The position numbers and the translations under genes are program-made. The notes under the pieces are model-generated. The model did no database searches. It had not been told where the DNA came from and was given only the letters and a program-made list of their open reading frames with translations. A stretch of DNA of 64,000 bases from an uncultured Candidatus Poseidoniales archaeon (GTDB taxonomy: Archaea; Thermoplasmatota; Poseidoniia; Poseidoniales; Poseidoniaceae): contig CACEWA010000001.1 in the NCBI GenBank assembly GCA_902563095.1, positions 24,540 through 88,539 on the forward strand. The letters are read 5' to 3'. Shown piece by piece: positions 24,013 to 43,570 of the stretch (positions are counted from its first letter, which is position 1; the number at the start of each line of letters is the position of its first letter).

Positions 24013-24777
24013 TCACTCTTCTTCGCTACTTGTATCGCAATCTTCGGATTCACAGGTTGTATCTGGACAACATGATTTGTTCTCTTCCTCCTCAGACGCA
24101 ACGCGAGGTTCGTGAACTTCAACGAATGACACCTTTCCAGCCTCTACAGCATCTCTAAGAACAGTTACTAAGCGGAACTTTTGCATTGCAGCATTAGGGT
24201 CGAATAGCATAGTTTGAGGTACGACGATTGAAATGTCATCACCTTCAAATGAAACTTCGAAACCTTCCTGTCCAGTATTTGCTTCAAGTAGTGCAGCAAC
24301 TTTCTCTTCCTTGCCTTCGATGACCTTTACAATCTTGTAATCGTACTTCAGTGTACGTCCGGCCATAGGATGGTTGTAATCGATACGAGCACGGCCTGCT
24401 GCTAAGTAGGACAGAATTCCTTGTCGACCATCAACGGTAACTGGTCCACCGATATACAGCGACTTAGGGTCACGGACATGGCGTAGAAGTTTATCGATAG
24501 AAATAGTTTCAATTTGTTCTGGATCTTTTTCTCCATAGGCATCTGCCGGAGCGATCTCTAGAGAAACATCCTTGTCTGCTTCAGCTTCTAGTAGACTGTC
24601 CTCGAAACCAGAAATTAGGTTTCCAGCACCAACCACACAGACAAGAGGAGTGTAAGTTCTACCCTCTTGATGCATGTCATGCTCCTTTGCGACTTCTTCT
24701 CTAGTGGTCTCAATCAAATCGCCGGAGTCTGCGTTATACAGGTCATAATCGACGTGGACAATGGTTCCTTCTTCCAT
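24013..24777 (-). CDS. slyD: Long-type FKBP peptidyl-prolyl isomerase (SlyD-like)
   Basis: IETT.EEVA, GNLISGFE, IAPADAYG, RIDYNHPMAGRTL. Confidence 0.9.
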   Translation of the reverse strand: MEEGTIVHVDYDLYNADSGDLIETTREEVAKEHDMHQEGRTYTPLVCVVGAGNLISGFEDSLLEAEADKDVSLEIAPADAYGEKDPEQIETISIDKLLRHVRDPKSLYIGGPVTVDGRQGILSYLAAGRARIDYNHPMAGRTLKYDYKIVKVIEGKEEKVAALLEANTGQEGFEVSFEGDDISIVVPQTMLFDPNAAMQKFRLVTVLRDAVEAGKVSFVEVHEPRVASEEEENKSCCPDTTCESEDCDTSSEEE

Positions 24778-35684: not shown

Positions 35685-37118
35685 ATGAGAACGATTTTCC
35701 TATCACTACTGATGGTCAGTGCATCTCTTGCCGGATGCTTTGGAGAGGAGGAATCCAAAACCACAGTTGTGGAAGAAACCGTTTGGGACTTTGAAAGGCC
35801 TGAACTTACTTGGTATCACTTTGCCGATGCGATTGATGCTTGGGGAAATAATGAGTATGAATTCAAAGACAGGAATATGCCATTTGTTGCTACTGGAACA
35901 TATTACGGAATAGGAATGTCAACCTTTGAGCCGACGATGGGAATCACTCAAACCGATACGATGGTGATGACATCATGGGGCAATGGCCCTGCAGGCTCAA
36001 CTGCGATTATTTCATGTGATTTGATTGGAATGTATGATGCTCTTTCATACACTTGTGAGAATACATATGACCCTTTAATTCCAGTTCCAAATTCTAACGA
36101 TCCGTATGTGTATGTAGATCCATGGACTGGCCGAATTATGAAATTCGACATGCATGCTCTTCTCGGAATGACTGTTGAATGGTCAGATAATGATGGAGAT
36201 TCATGGAGCCCGATTACTGTAGCTACAGATGTTCGCTCGGTTCAAGACCATCAAACGATTGCTAGTACAAATGCTCCAACTGCTTTACACCCCACAACTT
36301 GGATGTTCTGCATAAATGGAAATGCACCTCATCCATTATGCTCTGCTAGTTTTGATGGAGGCAATACATGGACTCCAGAATCTTCTGGCGCACCTATATC
36401 CTGTGGTTCAGGAGGCCTTACCGCTCATCTTGTTGGTAGTGTTGACGGGAATTTCTACCGAGGTAACACCGGTTGTTCTGGCGAAGGTTATTCGGTTTAC
36501 AGAACCACAAATGCTGGCCTTACTTGGACCGAACATGAACTACCAACTTCTGAATCTGGCACTGCTGATACTTGGAACGCTGAAGAGGCACAGGTCGAAG
36601 TCGATAGTGAAGGAAATGTACACGCTATGTGGATGGGGCTAGACAACATGCCTTACTGGTCTTACTCAAGAGACCAGGGTGACACATGGTCTAATGCCAC
36701 AATGATTGCACCACCAATCAATTTGTCAGGAACCGGATTCCCAGTTGTAGTAGCAGGCGATGTAGGAACTGTGGCATTCGGATATGTTGGTGAAACCGAA
36801 GGCGAAGATGAAATCTGGAATGCTTACCTAACGTATGCCACTGATGCGTTCAACGAGACACCATTGCTGACTACAGTACAGTTGAACGGAGATGATGACC
36901 CAATCGACACAGTCACAGATTGTGGATACAACCGATGTGGAGGCCTAGGTGACTTCTTAGACATCAGAGTAGATGCATACGGTAGAACTTGGTTCTCACT
37001 ATCTCACAACATCGCTGATATCGGCATATTCGCTACCTTCGATGTAGGACCAAGCCTACGAGGCGAGACAATATTCATGCTACCTGAGATGCCTGCTGGT
37101 GGCCCTCAGACTCTGTGA
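35685..37118 (+). CDS. Secreted lipoprotein with four Asp-box (BNR) repeats, sialidase-like beta-propeller
   Basis: LAGC lipobox; SDNDGDSW, SFDGGNTW, TTNAGLTW, SRDQGDTW. Confidence 0.8.
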   Translation: MRTIFLSLLMVSASLAGCFGEEESKTTVVEETVWDFERPELTWYHFADAIDAWGNNEYEFKDRNMPFVATGTYYGIGMSTFEPTMGITQTDTMVMTSWGNGPAGSTAIISCDLIGMYDALSYTCENTYDPLIPVPNSNDPYVYVDPWTGRIMKFDMHALLGMTVEWSDNDGDSWSPITVATDVRSVQDHQTIASTNAPTALHPTTWMFCINGNAPHPLCSASFDGGNTWTPESSGAPISCGSGGLTAHLVGSVDGNFYRGNTGCSGEGYSVYRTTNAGLTWTEHELPTSESGTADTWNAEEAQVEVDSEGNVHAMWMGLDNMPYWSYSRDQGDTWSNATMIAPPINLSGTGFPVVVAGDVGTVAFGYVGETEGEDEIWNAYLTYATDAFNETPLLTTVQLNGDDDPIDTVTDCGYNRCGGLGDFLDIRVDAYGRTWFSLSHNIADIGIFATFDVGPSLRGETIFMLPEMPAGGPQTL

Positions 37119-37137: not shown

Positions 37138-38421
37138 TCACCACTGGCACGGTTCAAGATGGGTTTTTCCTCCCATCAACGGTACTAAGCAATCGGGAAT
37201 GCTTACTCGGCCATCCTCAAGTTGGTTTTGTTCCATGATTGCTACAAGAGCTCTGCTAGTTGCAACCGCTGTTGAATTTAATGTGTGAACGGCAGCGTTA
37301 CCTTCACTAGTCCTGTAACGCATTCGTAGCCTATTTGCTTGGTAATCTGTACAGTTTGAGCAAGAGACGATTTCCTTGAATGCATTAGCACCTGGAAGCC
37401 ATGCTTCCAAATCGTATTTCCTTGCAGCAACTGTTCCCATATCTCCTGTGCAGATGTTTACTACCTCGTAATGTAGTCCGAGTTCATCCCAAAGGTCGAC
37501 ACAATTCTGCAACAAATCTTCATGGTGGTCCCAAGATTCATCAGGATGAGAAATCACAATCTGCTCGATCTTTGTAAACTGGTGTACTCGCCAAATTCCA
37601 CGGTCTGAGAGACCGTGTGCACCCACTTCTCTACGGAAACAAGGGCTTACCCCTACCATCTTAATCGGGAGGAGACTTGGCTCGATTACTTCGTCCATGT
37701 ACATCGAGGTGAGAGGGTGTTCGCTGGTTGCAATCATGTATAGCGGGTCTGGAGTTATGCCATACATTACTGTCTCAAAGTCAGAAAGATCTGTTACTCC
37801 CTCATAGGCCTGACGATTCATCATTACCGGCGGTTGCACAAAAGTGAATCCACGGGATGCTAAGAAATCGACAGCATAGGTTTGAAGAGCTAACTCAAGG
37901 CGTGCTAAATCTCCTTTTAGGAAAAAGAAGCGACTGCCTGCAATCTTTGCAGCACGTTCTAAATCGACCCATTTGTTCATGTCGATTAATTCGTTGTGAG
38001 TTCTTGGCTCAAAATCGAATTCTGGCTTTGCTCCGTGTAGAGAATGCTGAGTGTTTCCAGATTCGTCATCACCTTTTGGTACAGCATCGTGGAGAAGGTT
38101 AGGGATTCGCATTCTGATGCGATCTCTTTCTTCGAGCAGAGAGTTTGCCTTCTCATCTAAAGCAGCGATTCTATCGCCCAAATCTTTGACTTGGGCCATG
38201 ATTTTGTCCGCTTCTTCTTTGTTGCCGCTCTTCTTTGCATCTGCGATTCCTCGCGCTGCTAGATTACGTTCCCTTCGACCCTCTTCCATTTCTTTCAGAG
38301 CGCCTCTCCATTGTTCATCTAAATCGATTACTTGGTCGATTCGGTCATGGGGTATTCCACGCTTATCGTGATCTGCACGGACCTTATCCACTTCATTTCG
38401 AAATAAATCCATACTCAACAC
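37138..38421 (-). CDS. serS: Serine--tRNA ligase (bacterial/standard type)
   Basis: IATSEHPL, CFRREVG, RVHQFTKIE, KYDLEAW, EIVSCSNCTDYQ, HTLNSTA; start GTG 38421 or ATG 38412. Confidence 0.97.
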   Translation of the reverse strand: MLSMDLFRNEVDKVRADHDKRGIPHDRIDQVIDLDEQWRGALKEMEEGRRERNLAARGIADAKKSGNKEEADKIMAQVKDLGDRIAALDEKANSLLEERDRIRMRIPNLLHDAVPKGDDESGNTQHSLHGAKPEFDFEPRTHNELIDMNKWVDLERAAKIAGSRFFFLKGDLARLELALQTYAVDFLASRGFTFVQPPVMMNRQAYEGVTDLSDFETVMYGITPDPLYMIATSEHPLTSMYMDEVIEPSLLPIKMVGVSPCFRREVGAHGLSDRGIWRVHQFTKIEQIVISHPDESWDHHEDLLQNCVDLWDELGLHYEVVNICTGDMGTVAARKYDLEAWLPGANAFKEIVSCSNCTDYQANRLRMRYRTSEGNAAVHTLNSTAVATSRALVAIMEQNQLEDGRVSIPDCLVPLMGGKTHLEPCQW

Positions 38422-38431
38422 GAAAATCACC

Positions 38432-40693
38432 TCACAATGTAATTCCAAATGAAAATGCTGCACTGCCCACGAAAATTAGCCCGCCTACAATGTAACCTAA
38501 AATTGCGCCACCATTCAGTAATGGAAGCCCAGCCTGTGGCCTACCTGATGCCACATAAGTCATCAGAACGAGATAACCAATCAATCCACCTATCAGTGCA
38601 GATATGCCTACTGCTAAACCGCTATCAGAAATGTAGTTGACACAAGAAATCACCAACATTCCGGGGAAAATTACGTCTCCAAGACCCATGAACATGGCTT
38701 CCTTAGGCTTCTTTCGCTTTACGACCTGCTTAGGACTGGATTCTGCTGTACTTTCTGCAGGAGCATCGCTCTGTTGCTCAGGCGGACGAATTGAATCCTT
38801 TTCATCAAGCATTGAGTAACCGCTTTCTTGAGGTGCTACTAGCAATATTGGTAGATTTAGACCAATCATTGTATCTGCAAGGTCTAACATGTGCTTTGAG
38901 CGATAGACTGCCCATGCATCATATACTGCAGCTAAAACCATGAAAATTACAATCAGTGTAGGAACGAATGTTACTCCTAGCATGACGATTACACCGGCTC
39001 CAACCAATACTCCTACAGTATTGACAATGTACCATTCTGGACGAATCATAAGAGCAGTCATTAGCAAGACTGCAAGACCAATTCCGACTAGGAATGCTGT
39101 ATCATCCCACTGAATTCCATAGATATTGTACATTGTATCGGGGTTGAACTGACCACTTTCTACAACGAACATTTCCATTGTATTATTATTCGAATCTTGA
39201 TATTCTGAAGTTCGTGTTGTTTTGATGTCATAACCATCGATGAACATAATTGAATCAGAACCTAACTCTACATTAATAGTGACATACTCTATCAGTGAAT
39301 CATAGAATAGGCCGTGAATTCCATCACCATCGGCAATCCATAACTCATCACCATCATGAGCGTCCAGATCGAAGTTTGCGATGTATGCAATTGGCCCTTG
39401 GAAGGAGTCGCCCCCTCGGAATCTATCTTCCTCTTCGAAAATCTCATCAACCTCTTCATCGATAATCTCTGCATCTATTGCTCCATTTTCAAATCCTGCC
39501 ATCACTAATTCTTGTGATTCATTCCAAGGGTTGGTTACCACATTGAATGCCGAAATCAAATTATTTGTTTCAGGAATCAGAATCCATTCAAGACTACAAC
39601 CGTCAGCCCAATTTCCAGGCTTCGGCCCCTGATCCATATAAGGGCTAGATGATTGTTCCAATTCAATCATAGCTGCACCGTATGGAGTCGCCACTAGCAA
39701 ACTATCTGAATCATATTGCCGGCTCATTAGAACCTCGCCATTCATTTGTAATTGGGGGTAAGACCATTCAGCAACATTGCGATGAATTTCGACATCATCC
39801 ATCTGATCTGACTCGATAAAGGAATTTGCAAAGGTCTCGGACCTGACTATTGTATTCGTAGCGGTCAAAATATACAGCGCACCTTTCCTTTGCCCAGTTT
39901 CTGCTTCAGCGTCTTCAATGACTTCTAAGGCTGAAACGCACGGTCCAATCTCTGCAATTTCAGTAGCATTAACCAGTGTACCATCCCAATTTTCGAATTC
40001 AAAACAAGCGTACTTGCTCAAAATTTCGCCGCTGTCTTTGTCTAAAGTCCAGATCCATGCATTGTTGTTGACTGTGTAGCCATAATCACCTTCGATTACT
40101 GCAAACTGGTCGGGAACCCCTGGATATGAATCCAACTCAACAGACCATTGAGATGTAGCATTAGACGATTTCTTGGAAACTATCAACGAATGTTCAGATG
40201 GATCATCGCCATAAATCACTTTGTGAGTAATTATCGAACCGTCGCTGTTAACAGCGAGTAAATTCTCTTCCACATCCTCAAAATCTGTAAATTCAAAGGC
40301 CTCGGTTTCTATTTCAGGAACCAATAGAATGTGTGCCCCTGGAACGGTAGTATAGCAAAGAGCAAGGAATAAAACGAACAGAATTCCATACTTGATGAAA
40401 TGTTGCAGGTGATTCTTTGCTAACCACAAAATCATGAAAGTAAATGCAAAAATAGCAATCAATTCAAGAACAATCCAGCGAACTTCTGTAGATCCCGATT
40501 CACCAAATGCTTGTAATCCTGCAGCATCAAACCAAGGCTGCAACCATATACCTATGAAAATGGTAATCACGAACATGAACGCCATTCCAATCATGCCCGG
40601 AGCCTGCTCAATCATATTGGAAAGAAGGCTGTCTTCTTTGGCCAATTCACGTTCGACGCGCTTGACATGGTCTGTAGATGAAGACTCTCCCAT
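38432..40693 (-). CDS. Presenilin/SPP-like GxGD intramembrane aspartyl protease with large inserted domain
   Basis: AVYDAWAV (YD), MGLGDVIFPG (GxGD), QAGLPLLN (PAL-equivalent). Confidence 0.9.
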   Translation of the reverse strand: MGESSSTDHVKRVERELAKEDSLLSNMIEQAPGMIGMAFMFVITIFIGIWLQPWFDAAGLQAFGESGSTEVRWIVLELIAIFAFTFMILWLAKNHLQHFIKYGILFVLFLALCYTTVPGAHILLVPEIETEAFEFTDFEDVEENLLAVNSDGSIITHKVIYGDDPSEHSLIVSKKSSNATSQWSVELDSYPGVPDQFAVIEGDYGYTVNNNAWIWTLDKDSGEILSKYACFEFENWDGTLVNATEIAEIGPCVSALEVIEDAEAETGQRKGALYILTATNTIVRSETFANSFIESDQMDDVEIHRNVAEWSYPQLQMNGEVLMSRQYDSDSLLVATPYGAAMIELEQSSSPYMDQGPKPGNWADGCSLEWILIPETNNLISAFNVVTNPWNESQELVMAGFENGAIDAEIIDEEVDEIFEEEDRFRGGDSFQGPIAYIANFDLDAHDGDELWIADGDGIHGLFYDSLIEYVTINVELGSDSIMFIDGYDIKTTRTSEYQDSNNNTMEMFVVESGQFNPDTMYNIYGIQWDDTAFLVGIGLAVLLMTALMIRPEWYIVNTVGVLVGAGVIVMLGVTFVPTLIVIFMVLAAVYDAWAVYRSKHMLDLADTMIGLNLPILLVAPQESGYSMLDEKDSIRPPEQQSDAPAESTAESSPKQVVKRKKPKEAMFMGLGDVIFPGMLVISCVNYISDSGLAVGISALIGGLIGYLVLMTYVASGRPQAGLPLLNGGAILGYIVGGLIFVGSAAFSFGITL

Positions 40694-42430: not shown

Positions 42431-43570
42431 ATGCGAGGGCATGTTTTGTTGGTGTCCTTGATTCTGCTTCTATCGCCGGGTTGCACCTATTTTGACGAAA
42501 TTTCTGGCGAAGAAAATGTAGATGCAACTCAGCAAATTGACCCAATTTTTGGATGTACTGACTCTGAAGCCAACAATTACAACTCAAGCGCAACCGAAGA
42601 TGATGGCTCGTGTGAATATGATGAACCGGAGCCCGAACCTGAACCTATTTTGGGTTGTACGGATTCTGATGCGATGAACTATGATTCAAATGCAACTGAA
42701 GATGATGGATCATGCAAGTATATGGAAACGATTCCATGCAATGGTTTAGTCATACTTTGCCACAGAACTTACGACCAAGTGACATTCCCTGAAACTCACA
42801 ATTCCTACTCAACACACGAAGATAACATCTACTATCCTGCAAGCAATCATAGAACCGGATTCCAAGCACAATGGAATGCAGGCATGAGGGCATTCATGCT
42901 AGACACTCATTACCTTACAACAGCAGACCAAAGCGCATCAAATGTACGATTTTGCCATGGCGATTCAGATAGAGGATTCAGCCCCTGTACCTACGGAGCT
43001 GTTGACCCTTGGAACTGGTTGAGCAATCTAGAATCGGAAATGAATAGTGAAGAAAGAGACATTGTCACTTTACTGATTGAAAATTATGTTGAGCCCGACC
43101 ATTTGAAGGAGATATTCGATGATGTGGGACTGTCAGAAATGATGTATGTCCATGAAATGAATTCCGAATGGCCCACCCTGATTGATATGATCAACATGGA
43201 CAAGCGCCTTGTTGTTTTCTGGGAGCAATCGGGTGATTCTGAACATCCTTATTTCCATGATTTCCTAACGCATAGCTGGACCACAAATTATGCTGATGAT
43301 GATACATCTTCAATGGACTGTGAGAAGTTAAGAGGCGATGTCAACCAACCTGTGTACCACATGAATAATTGGTTGAAAAATCAAGCAGGATTGTCAGATC
43401 CAAACCGCGCTAGTGAAGCGAATGATGTTGATTTCATGGTTGAACGCGCAATCGAATGTATCGAACTTCATCAAAAGCGCCCCACCTTCATTGCTGTTGA
43501 TTGGTGGGAGGAAGGAGATGTAGTTGAAGCGGTTGAAAGGGTTAACCTGATGGAACTAGATTCTGACTAA
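42431..43570 (+). CDS. Lipoprotein with GCTD repeats and PI-PLC X-domain-like phosphodiesterase
   Basis: LSPGC lipobox-like; THNSYS, MLDTH, FCHG, LLIENY, WPTL.DM...KRLVVF, PTFIAVDW. Confidence 0.8.
   Translation: MRGHVLLVSLILLLSPGCTYFDEISGEENVDATQQIDPIFGCTDSEANNYNSSATEDDGSCEYDEPEPEPEPILGCTDSDAMNYDSNATEDDGSCKYMETIPCNGLVILCHRTYDQVTFPETHNSYSTHEDNIYYPASNHRTGFQAQWNAGMRAFMLDTHYLTTADQSASNVRFCHGDSDRGFSPCTYGAVDPWNWLSNLESEMNSEERDIVTLLIENYVEPDHLKEIFDDVGLSEMMYVHEMNSEWPTLIDMINMDKRLVVFWEQSGDSEHPYFHDFLTHSWTTNYADDDTSSMDCEKLRGDVNQPVYHMNNWLKNQAGLSDPNRASEANDVDFMVERAIECIELHQKRPTFIAVDWWEEGDVVEAVERVNLMELDSD
42550..42720 (+). repeat. Two GCTDSxAxNYxSxATEDDGSC repeats separated by a Pro-Glu linker
   Basis: Direct repeat visible in both protein and DNA. 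Confidence 0.9.

Follow-up and report, generated by a model that had tools for sequence, protein, structure and literature searches.

Here we describe an archaeal presenilin homologue (PSH) that carries a predicted seven-bladed beta-propeller in the loop between its third and fourth transmembrane (TM) helices. The gene occupies 38432..40693 on the minus strand of the window, the whole stretch of 64,000 nucleotides (nt) analysed here (contig CACEWA010000001.1, forward-strand positions 24,540 to 88,539, assembly GCA_902563095.1); all parts of the gene named below lie on the same strand. The source is an uncultured Candidatus Poseidoniales archaeon (Marine Group II) of the Poseidoniaceae, represented by a metagenome-assembled genome (MAG) of 1.38 Mb that is 63% complete. 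The protein is a real and apparently undescribed variant of a known enzyme family, and its propeller is encoded by a hypervariable, recombining cassette. We tentatively favour the view that the propeller serves the protease to which it is fused, by influencing which substrates are cleaved.

By its sequence, the gene product is an intramembrane aspartyl protease of the presenilin type (PSH, peptidase family A22), the only one in the genome, with a complete nine-TM catalytic core. The open reading frame (ORF) of 753 amino acids (aa) runs without an internal stop to the stop codon at 38432-38434. The protein matches the Pfam family PF06550 (SPP/presenilin aspartyl protease; E 1.9e-48, 165.8 bits against a cut-off of 23.9) and the NCBIfam equivalog NF041679, 'presenilin family intramembrane aspartyl protease PSH' (210.4 bits against a curated cut-off of 125). 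Among solved structures, its sole sequence match is the PSH of Methanoculleus marisnigri (4HYC/4HYG/4Y6K, 301 aa; E 2.8e-31). Aligned with 4HYC, the protein falls into three pieces: query residues 34-120 on PSH 9-91 (TM1-3), a weak match drawn from sequence only; residues 533-636 on PSH 102-206 (TM4-6), with AAVYDAW over VLLAVYDAI; and residues 663-743 on PSH 210-294 (TM7-9), with MGLGDVIFP over MGMGDLIMP. The catalytic aspartate motifs, Y591-D592 in TM6 (nt 38918-38923) and GLGD 670-673 in TM7 (nt 38675-38686), are invariant in 76 homologues, and the PAL-type motif QAGLPLLNGG (residues 720-729, nt 38507-38536) aligns with QAGLPPLNGG of PSH. An earlier note on this DNA, hereafter the original prediction, had called the gene a presenilin homologue with YD and GLGD intact, and the ORF, both family matches and the motif alignment agree with it. 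A scan of the 63% complete MAG found a single presenilin-family match, a single copy of the insert and no paralogue.

Of the nine hydrophobic segments, three lie before the insert and six after it. Residues 1-124 (40322..40693) form the cytoplasmic N-terminus and TM1-TM3 (helices H31-58, H71-93 and H97-124), as placed by the alignment to PSH 9-91. After the insert, residues 531-611 (38861..39103) comprise TM4-TM6, which bear the catalytic YD, and the next helix; this part aligns with PSH 102-206 and is near-invariant in the 76 homologues. The TM6-TM7 loop (residues 612-666; 38696..38860) is assigned to the cytoplasm by the positive-inside rule, and contains a basic KRKKPK cluster, a disordered stretch (631-663) and a short strand (E617-620). 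Residues 667-753 (38435..38695) supply a beta-strand (667-670) and then TM7-TM9 with GLGD and QAGLPLLNGG, as indicated by the alignment to PSH 210-294 and by Foldseek. Of the PSH-family features examined, the only one not found is the compact ~300-aa architecture with short outer loops. We class the protein as a variant of PSH because it has a 406-residue TM3-TM4 insert instead of that compact form.

The insert spans residues 125-530, in place of the ~10-residue TM3-TM4 loop of the crystallised PSH. With 23 homologues, AlphaFold2 (AF2) modelled the insert confidently as all-beta but the membrane part poorly (predicted local distance difference test, pLDDT, 30-65). With 76 diverse homologues the mean pLDDT was 83 and the predicted template modelling score (pTM) 0.64, with the TM helices at 80-93 and the insert at 90-96. 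This model has nine TM helices, and the insert consists of 27 strands grouped 4,4,4,4,4,4,3; as modelled, it is a seven-bladed beta-propeller. A Foldseek comparison, proposed for the insert with the original prediction, matched the whole model both to PSH and to generic propellers in the PDB. The PSH structures 4y6k_B and 4hyg were recovered (for 4y6k_B, E 3.9e-7, root-mean-square deviation 4.2 Å over 214 columns of TM4-9, 30% identity), as were seven-bladed propellers including DDB1 BPB, the WD40 domain of RFWD3, YncE, BBS9 and kaptin (probability 1.0, target-normalised TM-score ~0.5, 8-13% identity). No nicastrin chain was among the top 50 matches of either Foldseek search, where all the non-PSH matches were propellers. 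The AF2 model also contains two short strands flanking the cytoplasmic loop, 617-620 LLVA (38834-38845) and 667-670 MFMG (38684-38695), the second of which abuts GLGD; their positions resemble what we take to be the presenilin strands that pair with substrate.

The propeller proper comprises residues 137-515 (39149..40285) and is joined to the membrane core by two linkers, both better conserved than the propeller loops. The N-linker, VPEIETEAFEFT (residues 125-136; 40286..40321), leads from TM3 to the first propeller strand and has a conservation of 0.56, against ~0.39 in the propeller loops. The C-linker, FNPDTMYNIYGIQWD (residues 516-530; 39104..39148), leads from the last strand to TM4, and its M521, Y522 and G526 are conserved. 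The original prediction had placed an acidic domain between TM3 and TM4 at 39130-40270 (residues 142-522), close to the strand-bearing segment of the model. The segments that it read as propeller-like, SQWSVEL and WIWTL...ILSKY, are modelled as beta-strands (E181-188, E213-217 and E224-229).

Sequence comparisons leave the propeller close to an orphan. Pfam found no family in the window's own insert at E <= 5. Among 14 homologous inserts, Beta-prop_BBS7 was matched weakly in eight (best E 1.3e-4) and FG-GAP_3 in two. Comparison of profiles with hhalign matched an FG-GAP propeller protein at a probability of 48%, over the blade with DLDxxxGxE; a search of the insert profile against PDB sequences gave noise only (GAPDH at E 0.007; PQQ dehydrogenase and kaptin at E > 1). 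The best-conserved blade is blade 6 (strand conservation 0.6-0.72), which holds an FG-GAP-like loop, DLDAHDGDELWIADG (residues 442-456; 39326..39370), whose D442 is at least 90% conserved. Calcium-binding loops of the DxDxDGxxD type are not spread over several blades: there is one only, at residues 442-450 in this blade. The FG-GAP-like label of the original prediction thus stands for one loop, and is weakly supported as a family assignment. We regard it as reasonable to that extent, and the propeller as perhaps distantly FG-GAP/BBS-like.

We infer that the propeller lies outside the cell from four lines of evidence: presenilin topology, the positive-inside rule together with the acidity of the insert, a pair of cysteines, and an enrichment of glycosylation sequons. 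In PSH and presenilin, the TM3-TM4 loop is extracytoplasmic. Lysines and arginines are found in the TM2-3, TM6-7 (KRKKPK) and TM8-9 loops; the net charge of the insert is -67, and ranges from -27 to -73 across the 76 homologues. Most inserts have exactly two cysteines. In the window's protein these are C230 (40004-40006) and C252 (39938-39940) in blade 3 (together spanning 39938..40006), which probably form a disulfide: C252 is present in 76/76 sequences and C230 in 67/76, the remaining nine being alignment gaps. N-glycosylation sequons are 1.8-fold enriched in the insert (6.4 observed against 3.5 expected after shuffling), and their density per 100 aa is 1.63 there, compared with 0.12 for the remainder of the protein and 0-0.7 for neighbouring cytoplasmic proteins. 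A cytoplasmic insert, one of the outcomes named beforehand as fatal to the original prediction, is at odds with these observations, all of which point outward. Consistent with this orientation, loop 1 of PS1 takes part in substrate recognition (PMC7248309).

The architecture is widespread among the relatives of this archaeon. A word-indexed search returned 956 homologues; those listed are 714-772 aa long, with the exception of two truncated sequences of 456 and 472 aa, and the labels of several name the Poseidoniales or Poseidoniaceae. The insert is kept in hundreds of homologues, down to ~33% overall identity; this conservation, with the purifying selection described below, puts the feature well outside chance. 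Genome scans found it once in every sampled genome of the Poseidoniaceae, and five genera of the sister family have a diverged insert-bearing PSH of 701-867 aa. When the insert alone was used as the profile, a search of 1.84 billion representative proteins gave 71 matches at E <= 0.001. All were either PSH fusions or short fragments of genes, apart from four at the margin (E ~1e-4), which were FG-GAP/BBS propellers and proteins with PKD repeats. In one Poseidoniaceae genome (G081:C1:108507-109684) the insert-bearing PSH lies in two frames (416 + 354 aa), split within the propeller at profile positions 259/260, which could reflect a frameshift, an assembly error or a pseudogene.

PSHs that lack the insert also exist within the order, and are weighed below. 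In a tree of the membrane core they form one clade (SH-aLRT, the approximate likelihood-ratio test, 99), which has a long stem and falls, with modest support (82), among the lineages that bear the insert. The trees were built by a quick method from ~280 columns, and their deep nodes are without resolution. Parsimony favours a single gain close to the root of the order and a single loss; a primary absence of the insert in this clade is also possible, the basal nodes being poorly supported. The insert-free PSHs at loci L013-L015, L017 and L018, from sister-family genera with small genomes, would fit a propeller lost as the genomes were streamlined, with the core then evolving faster.

The propeller-coding segment is a cassette, divergent alleles of which are swapped between near-identical genes by recombination in the conserved flanking DNA that encodes the linkers and TM helices. 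Identity to the query protein is 55-96% in the membrane core and 13-79% in the insert. Where two cores are at least 99% identical, the insert identity has a median of 98% and a minimum of 55%. In the pair P0044/P0046, 344/347 residues of the core are identical, against 211/385 of the propeller; the variable block, residues 132-515, is exactly the propeller, and only three differences fall elsewhere. At the DNA level (90-nt sliding window), these two loci are ~92% identical over the upstream gene, the TM1-3 and TM4-9 segments and serS, and ~55% identical over residues ~130-520. We counted divergence at four-fold degenerate sites, using only codons for the same amino acid, and obtained 0.28 in the flanks, 0.22 in the core and 0.76, which is saturated, in the insert (Fisher p ~1e-15). 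A second, independent pair (L021/L023) gave 0.40 against 0.68 (p 1e-5). A per-domain NG86 estimate of synonymous divergence (pS), which had also been higher in the insert, was set aside in favour of the four-fold sites, being inflated where the amino acids differ. One core cluster, at least 97% identical, bears five propeller classes, and some classes recur across core clusters. The case for exchange is built on these two DNA pairs together with the clustering at protein level.

Saturation of silent sites goes beyond what positive selection on amino acids alone would produce, and therefore indicates old, divergent alleles moved by homologous recombination. Within an allele class the propeller is under purifying selection (ratio of nonsynonymous to synonymous substitution, dN/dS, ~0.13 in one unsaturated pair). 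Chimeric metagenomic contigs could in principle create such a pattern, but the junctions fall at domain boundaries, within intact ORFs and in independent samples. Cassette behaviour of this kind typifies exposed surface structures that are under frequency-dependent selection, following the concept of replacement islands (PMC4033161). It suggests that the propeller surface meets something variable or hostile outside the cell.

Propeller-type inserts at this position extend beyond the Poseidoniales. A scan of 301 Thermoplasmatota genomes with the PSH model found at least nine further families whose PSH genes, in frames of 500-780 aa, are interrupted at the matching profile position (~88-98). Sixteen such loci (L027-L042; for example L030, G150:C1:623500-627700) encode TM1-3, an acidic insert of 230-400 aa, and TM4-9. 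Many of these inserts carry several canonical FG-GAP-like repeats (DxDxDGxxE, a hydrophobic residue, then G); one exceeds the Pfam thresholds for Beta-prop_BBS7 and FG-GAP_3, and another falls just below. A core tree of the whole phylum divides the insert-bearing PSHs among three clades: the Poseidoniales, a group of seven families (support 97) and a pair of families (support 98). The minimum number of state changes on this tree is four, its backbone being without resolution, and a single ancient insertion across the Thermoplasmatota is possible. In hhalign comparisons, the Poseidoniales insert aligned with that of the second clade at a probability of 52% (E 1.4e-4, collinear over 244 columns), and the second with the third at 78% (E 1.8e-5, 325 columns); a reversed-sequence control gave 0.2%. 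Inserts of one group (f18) showed no detectable relationship to the Poseidoniales insert in sequence comparison. These matches are suggestive, short of proof, that the inserts of the clades share ancestry. The inserts of the other families resemble those of the Poseidoniales in occupying the same loop, in acidity and in size (~230-400 aa), and differ in falling into separate core-tree clades, in carrying several FG-GAP-like loops and in their marginal sequence similarity; the cassette finding concerns the Poseidoniales only. The TM3-TM4 loop of PSH is thus a recurrent or an ancient site for propellers, and in either case their presence at the same loop argues for functional coupling to the protease and against chance fusion.

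We favour the explanation that the propeller acts in cis as a substrate gate or exosite, an account to which we give somewhat less than an even chance and which leans on analogy with other proteases. Its tethers would be the two linkers, 12 and 15 residues long, which join it to TM3 and TM4 at their outer ends. At ~45-50 Å the propeller would be about as wide as the nine-TM bundle, and so should overlie much of the protease's outer side. In gamma-secretase, TM2, 3, 5, 6 and 7 form the pocket that holds APP and Notch (PMC7248309). Because the TM3 anchor is one of these pocket helices, the propeller is wide and the linkers are short, we place its likely overhang beside the TM2/3/5/6/7 pocket, near the point where the ectodomain stub of a substrate would exit. 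The ectodomain module would then decide which type-I membrane stubs reach the active site, whether by steric exclusion of long ectodomains, by docking, or by both. The conserved linkers would form the adaptor that positions the propeller, and its exposed surface could diversify freely, with selection by viruses or another frequency-dependent agent as the probable driver.

Several points weigh against a gate or exosite. Firstly, PSH can evidently manage without it: in four sister-family genera with small genomes (1.3-1.6 Mb) the PSH is uninterrupted and its TM3-TM4 loop tiny, and the sister order has an ordinary ~300-aa PSH with no insert, so the propeller is dispensable for the basic PSH job. 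Secondly, a specific substrate-binding site would not be expected to be hypervariable, and a crude comparison of loop conservation on the two faces revealed no conserved face (0.40 against 0.38), a result that is weak either way given the uncertain blade register. Thirdly, the pTM of the model is only 0.64, so that capping of the substrate entrance is a supposition. Furthermore, we know of no physiological substrate for any archaeal PSH. Finally, PEN-2 contacts TM3 and TM4 of PS1 in gamma-secretase, and the loop between them need not lie over the lateral gate (PMC7248309).

The same observations can be read differently. There is a real, if minority, possibility that the propeller is a surface module with its own job, such as adhesion, envelope or glycan binding, or service as a virus target or decoy, with PSH as a mere anchor and the choice of cleavage unaffected. 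Hypervariable alleles exchanged by recombination are typical of exposed structures (PMC4033161), orthologues exist without the insert, and no conserved propeller face was detected, all of which would suit such a module. It fits less well with a domain set in an internal loop via short conserved linkers and not at an end of the protein, with insert matches that, among the 1.84 billion representatives, are significant almost only for PSH and short fragments, plus the four marginal ones, and with the recurrence of propellers at exactly the same loop in several PSH clades. Insertion in an internal loop, restriction to PSH and recurrence together argue for coupling to the protease.

Coupling could also take the form of ligand sensing. 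Here the propeller would bind Ca2+, a glycan or a peptide and switch the protease, giving regulated intramembrane proteolysis signalling in one protein. Propellers commonly bind ligands on one face, the best-conserved blade holds a single conserved FG-GAP-like DxDxxxG/D...E loop, and conserved linkers lead to TM3 and TM4. We nonetheless consider a sensor improbable: nothing around the gene, which sits among housekeeping genes beside serS, points to a partner, a released transcription factor or a regulated operon, and a fixed ligand fits poorly with a hypervariable surface. Very improbable, in our estimation, is a structural role in which the insert stabilises the TM3-TM4 hairpin or drives oligomerisation with no contact to substrate. 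PEN-2, which touches TM3 and TM4 of PS1 (PMC7248309), would offer a loose parallel; but PSH is active alone, with no partner (PMC2947513), orthologues do without the insert, and ~400 hypervariable residues would be a costly hairpin stabiliser. An artefact, in the form of an assembly chimera, intein or mobile element in a normal PSH gene, has the unusual length in its favour and nothing else, and can for practical purposes be dismissed, given the same uninterrupted ORF on many independent contigs and genomes, purifying selection, a confident fold, and no Pfam match to Hint/homing-endonuclease or transposase domains in the protein or the insert.

Comparison with known systems shows where a propeller acting as gate or exosite would stand. 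The PSH of M. marisnigri (MCMJR1) shares the nine-TM core, the YD, GxGD and QAGLPxLNGG motifs and the single-chain form, but has 301 residues and a TM3-TM4 loop of ~10, in place of the 753 residues and 406-residue propeller module found here. Gamma-secretase is likewise built on a protease of presenilin fold, and its substrates are screened on the outer side. Bolduc 2016, cited in PMC7248309, attributes to nicastrin a steric hindrance of long ectodomains. Nicastrin, however, is a separate subunit with a non-propeller fold, whereas the ectodomain here is in cis at the TM3-TM4 loop, which is the PEN-2 side in PS1; gating by the propeller would be an analogy. The closest architectural analogy is with the site-2 metalloprotease RseP, which also has a soluble module in an outward loop between two TM helices. 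Its tandem of PDZ domains is inserted between TM2 and TM3, works as a size-exclusion filter and is positioned by a conserved adaptor helix (PMC7728848). RseP differs in catalytic class and fold (a zinc S2P enzyme) and in having PDZ domains where we find a propeller. To our knowledge, RseP has not been reported to be hypervariable.

Within the GxGD superfamily itself, SPPL2a/b/c have a built-in luminal or extracellular domain, the PA domain, which is N-terminal and of a different fold. SPP/SPPL enzymes have inverted topology and cut type-II substrates. The PA domain of SPPL2 discriminates substrates by their luminal part (PMC12043953); Pfam matched no PA domain in the 753-aa protein. The present protein belongs to none of these families, and any likeness of its working to nicastrin, RseP-PDZ or SPPL2-PA is by analogy only. 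No description of a presenilin-family protease with a loop-inserted propeller was found in the literature searched, which covered few subscription journals.

The neighbourhood of the gene consists of housekeeping genes (a folC-like gene, dCMP deaminase and serS) and gives no functional clue. The gene for seryl-tRNA synthetase, serS (37138..38421, minus strand), starts with GTG 10 nt downstream of the PSH stop. This synteny is conserved: among loci L021-L026, the distance is 10 nt in every close relative examined, and 19 nt in L025/L026. Co-transcription of the PSH gene and serS is probable. In some relatives an M28 peptidase gene lies just downstream of serS, accompanied in L026 by an M9 collagenase gene; the window has neither. 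Two proteins that are secreted, or probably so, are encoded elsewhere in the window, both on the plus strand. The product of 35685-37118 is a predicted lipoprotein of 477 aa, with a signal peptide ending in LAGC and four Asp-box/BNR-like SxDxGxTW motifs, and is probably a secreted sialidase-like propeller; for its orthologue in relatives no Pfam match is on record. The product of 42431-43570 (379 aa) has two tandem Cys-bounded repeats (GCTDSxAxNYxSxATEDDGSCxY) followed by a domain of the PI-PLC_X / Rv2075c_cat type, matched in orthologues.

How presenilin-family proteases choose their substrates is a long-standing question, and the four-subunit make-up of gamma-secretase makes the role of an ectodomain hard to isolate. 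Here one polypeptide combines a presenilin core with an outer domain, so that ectodomain control can be tested by expression and in vitro cleavage. Nature also provides controls, in the form of close orthologues with no insert, divergent propeller alleles on near-identical cores, and independent or very old versions in other archaeal families. A wider history, which we think rather unlikely, is that Thermoplasmatota evolved a cis-acting ectodomain controller independently of nicastrin, once deep in the phylum or repeatedly, and that the Poseidoniales propeller is now a polymorphic specificity or recognition module, of which strains retain many ancient alleles and swap them because it is also a contact point for viruses or other variable partners outside the cell. 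If this were true, ectodomain gating would be a convergent, general solution for GxGD proteases. More generally, a hypervariable cassette that coincides with a single domain is a population-genetic oddity in a core housekeeping gene of abundant ocean archaea, and points to an interaction at the cell surface, with viruses or with other partners.

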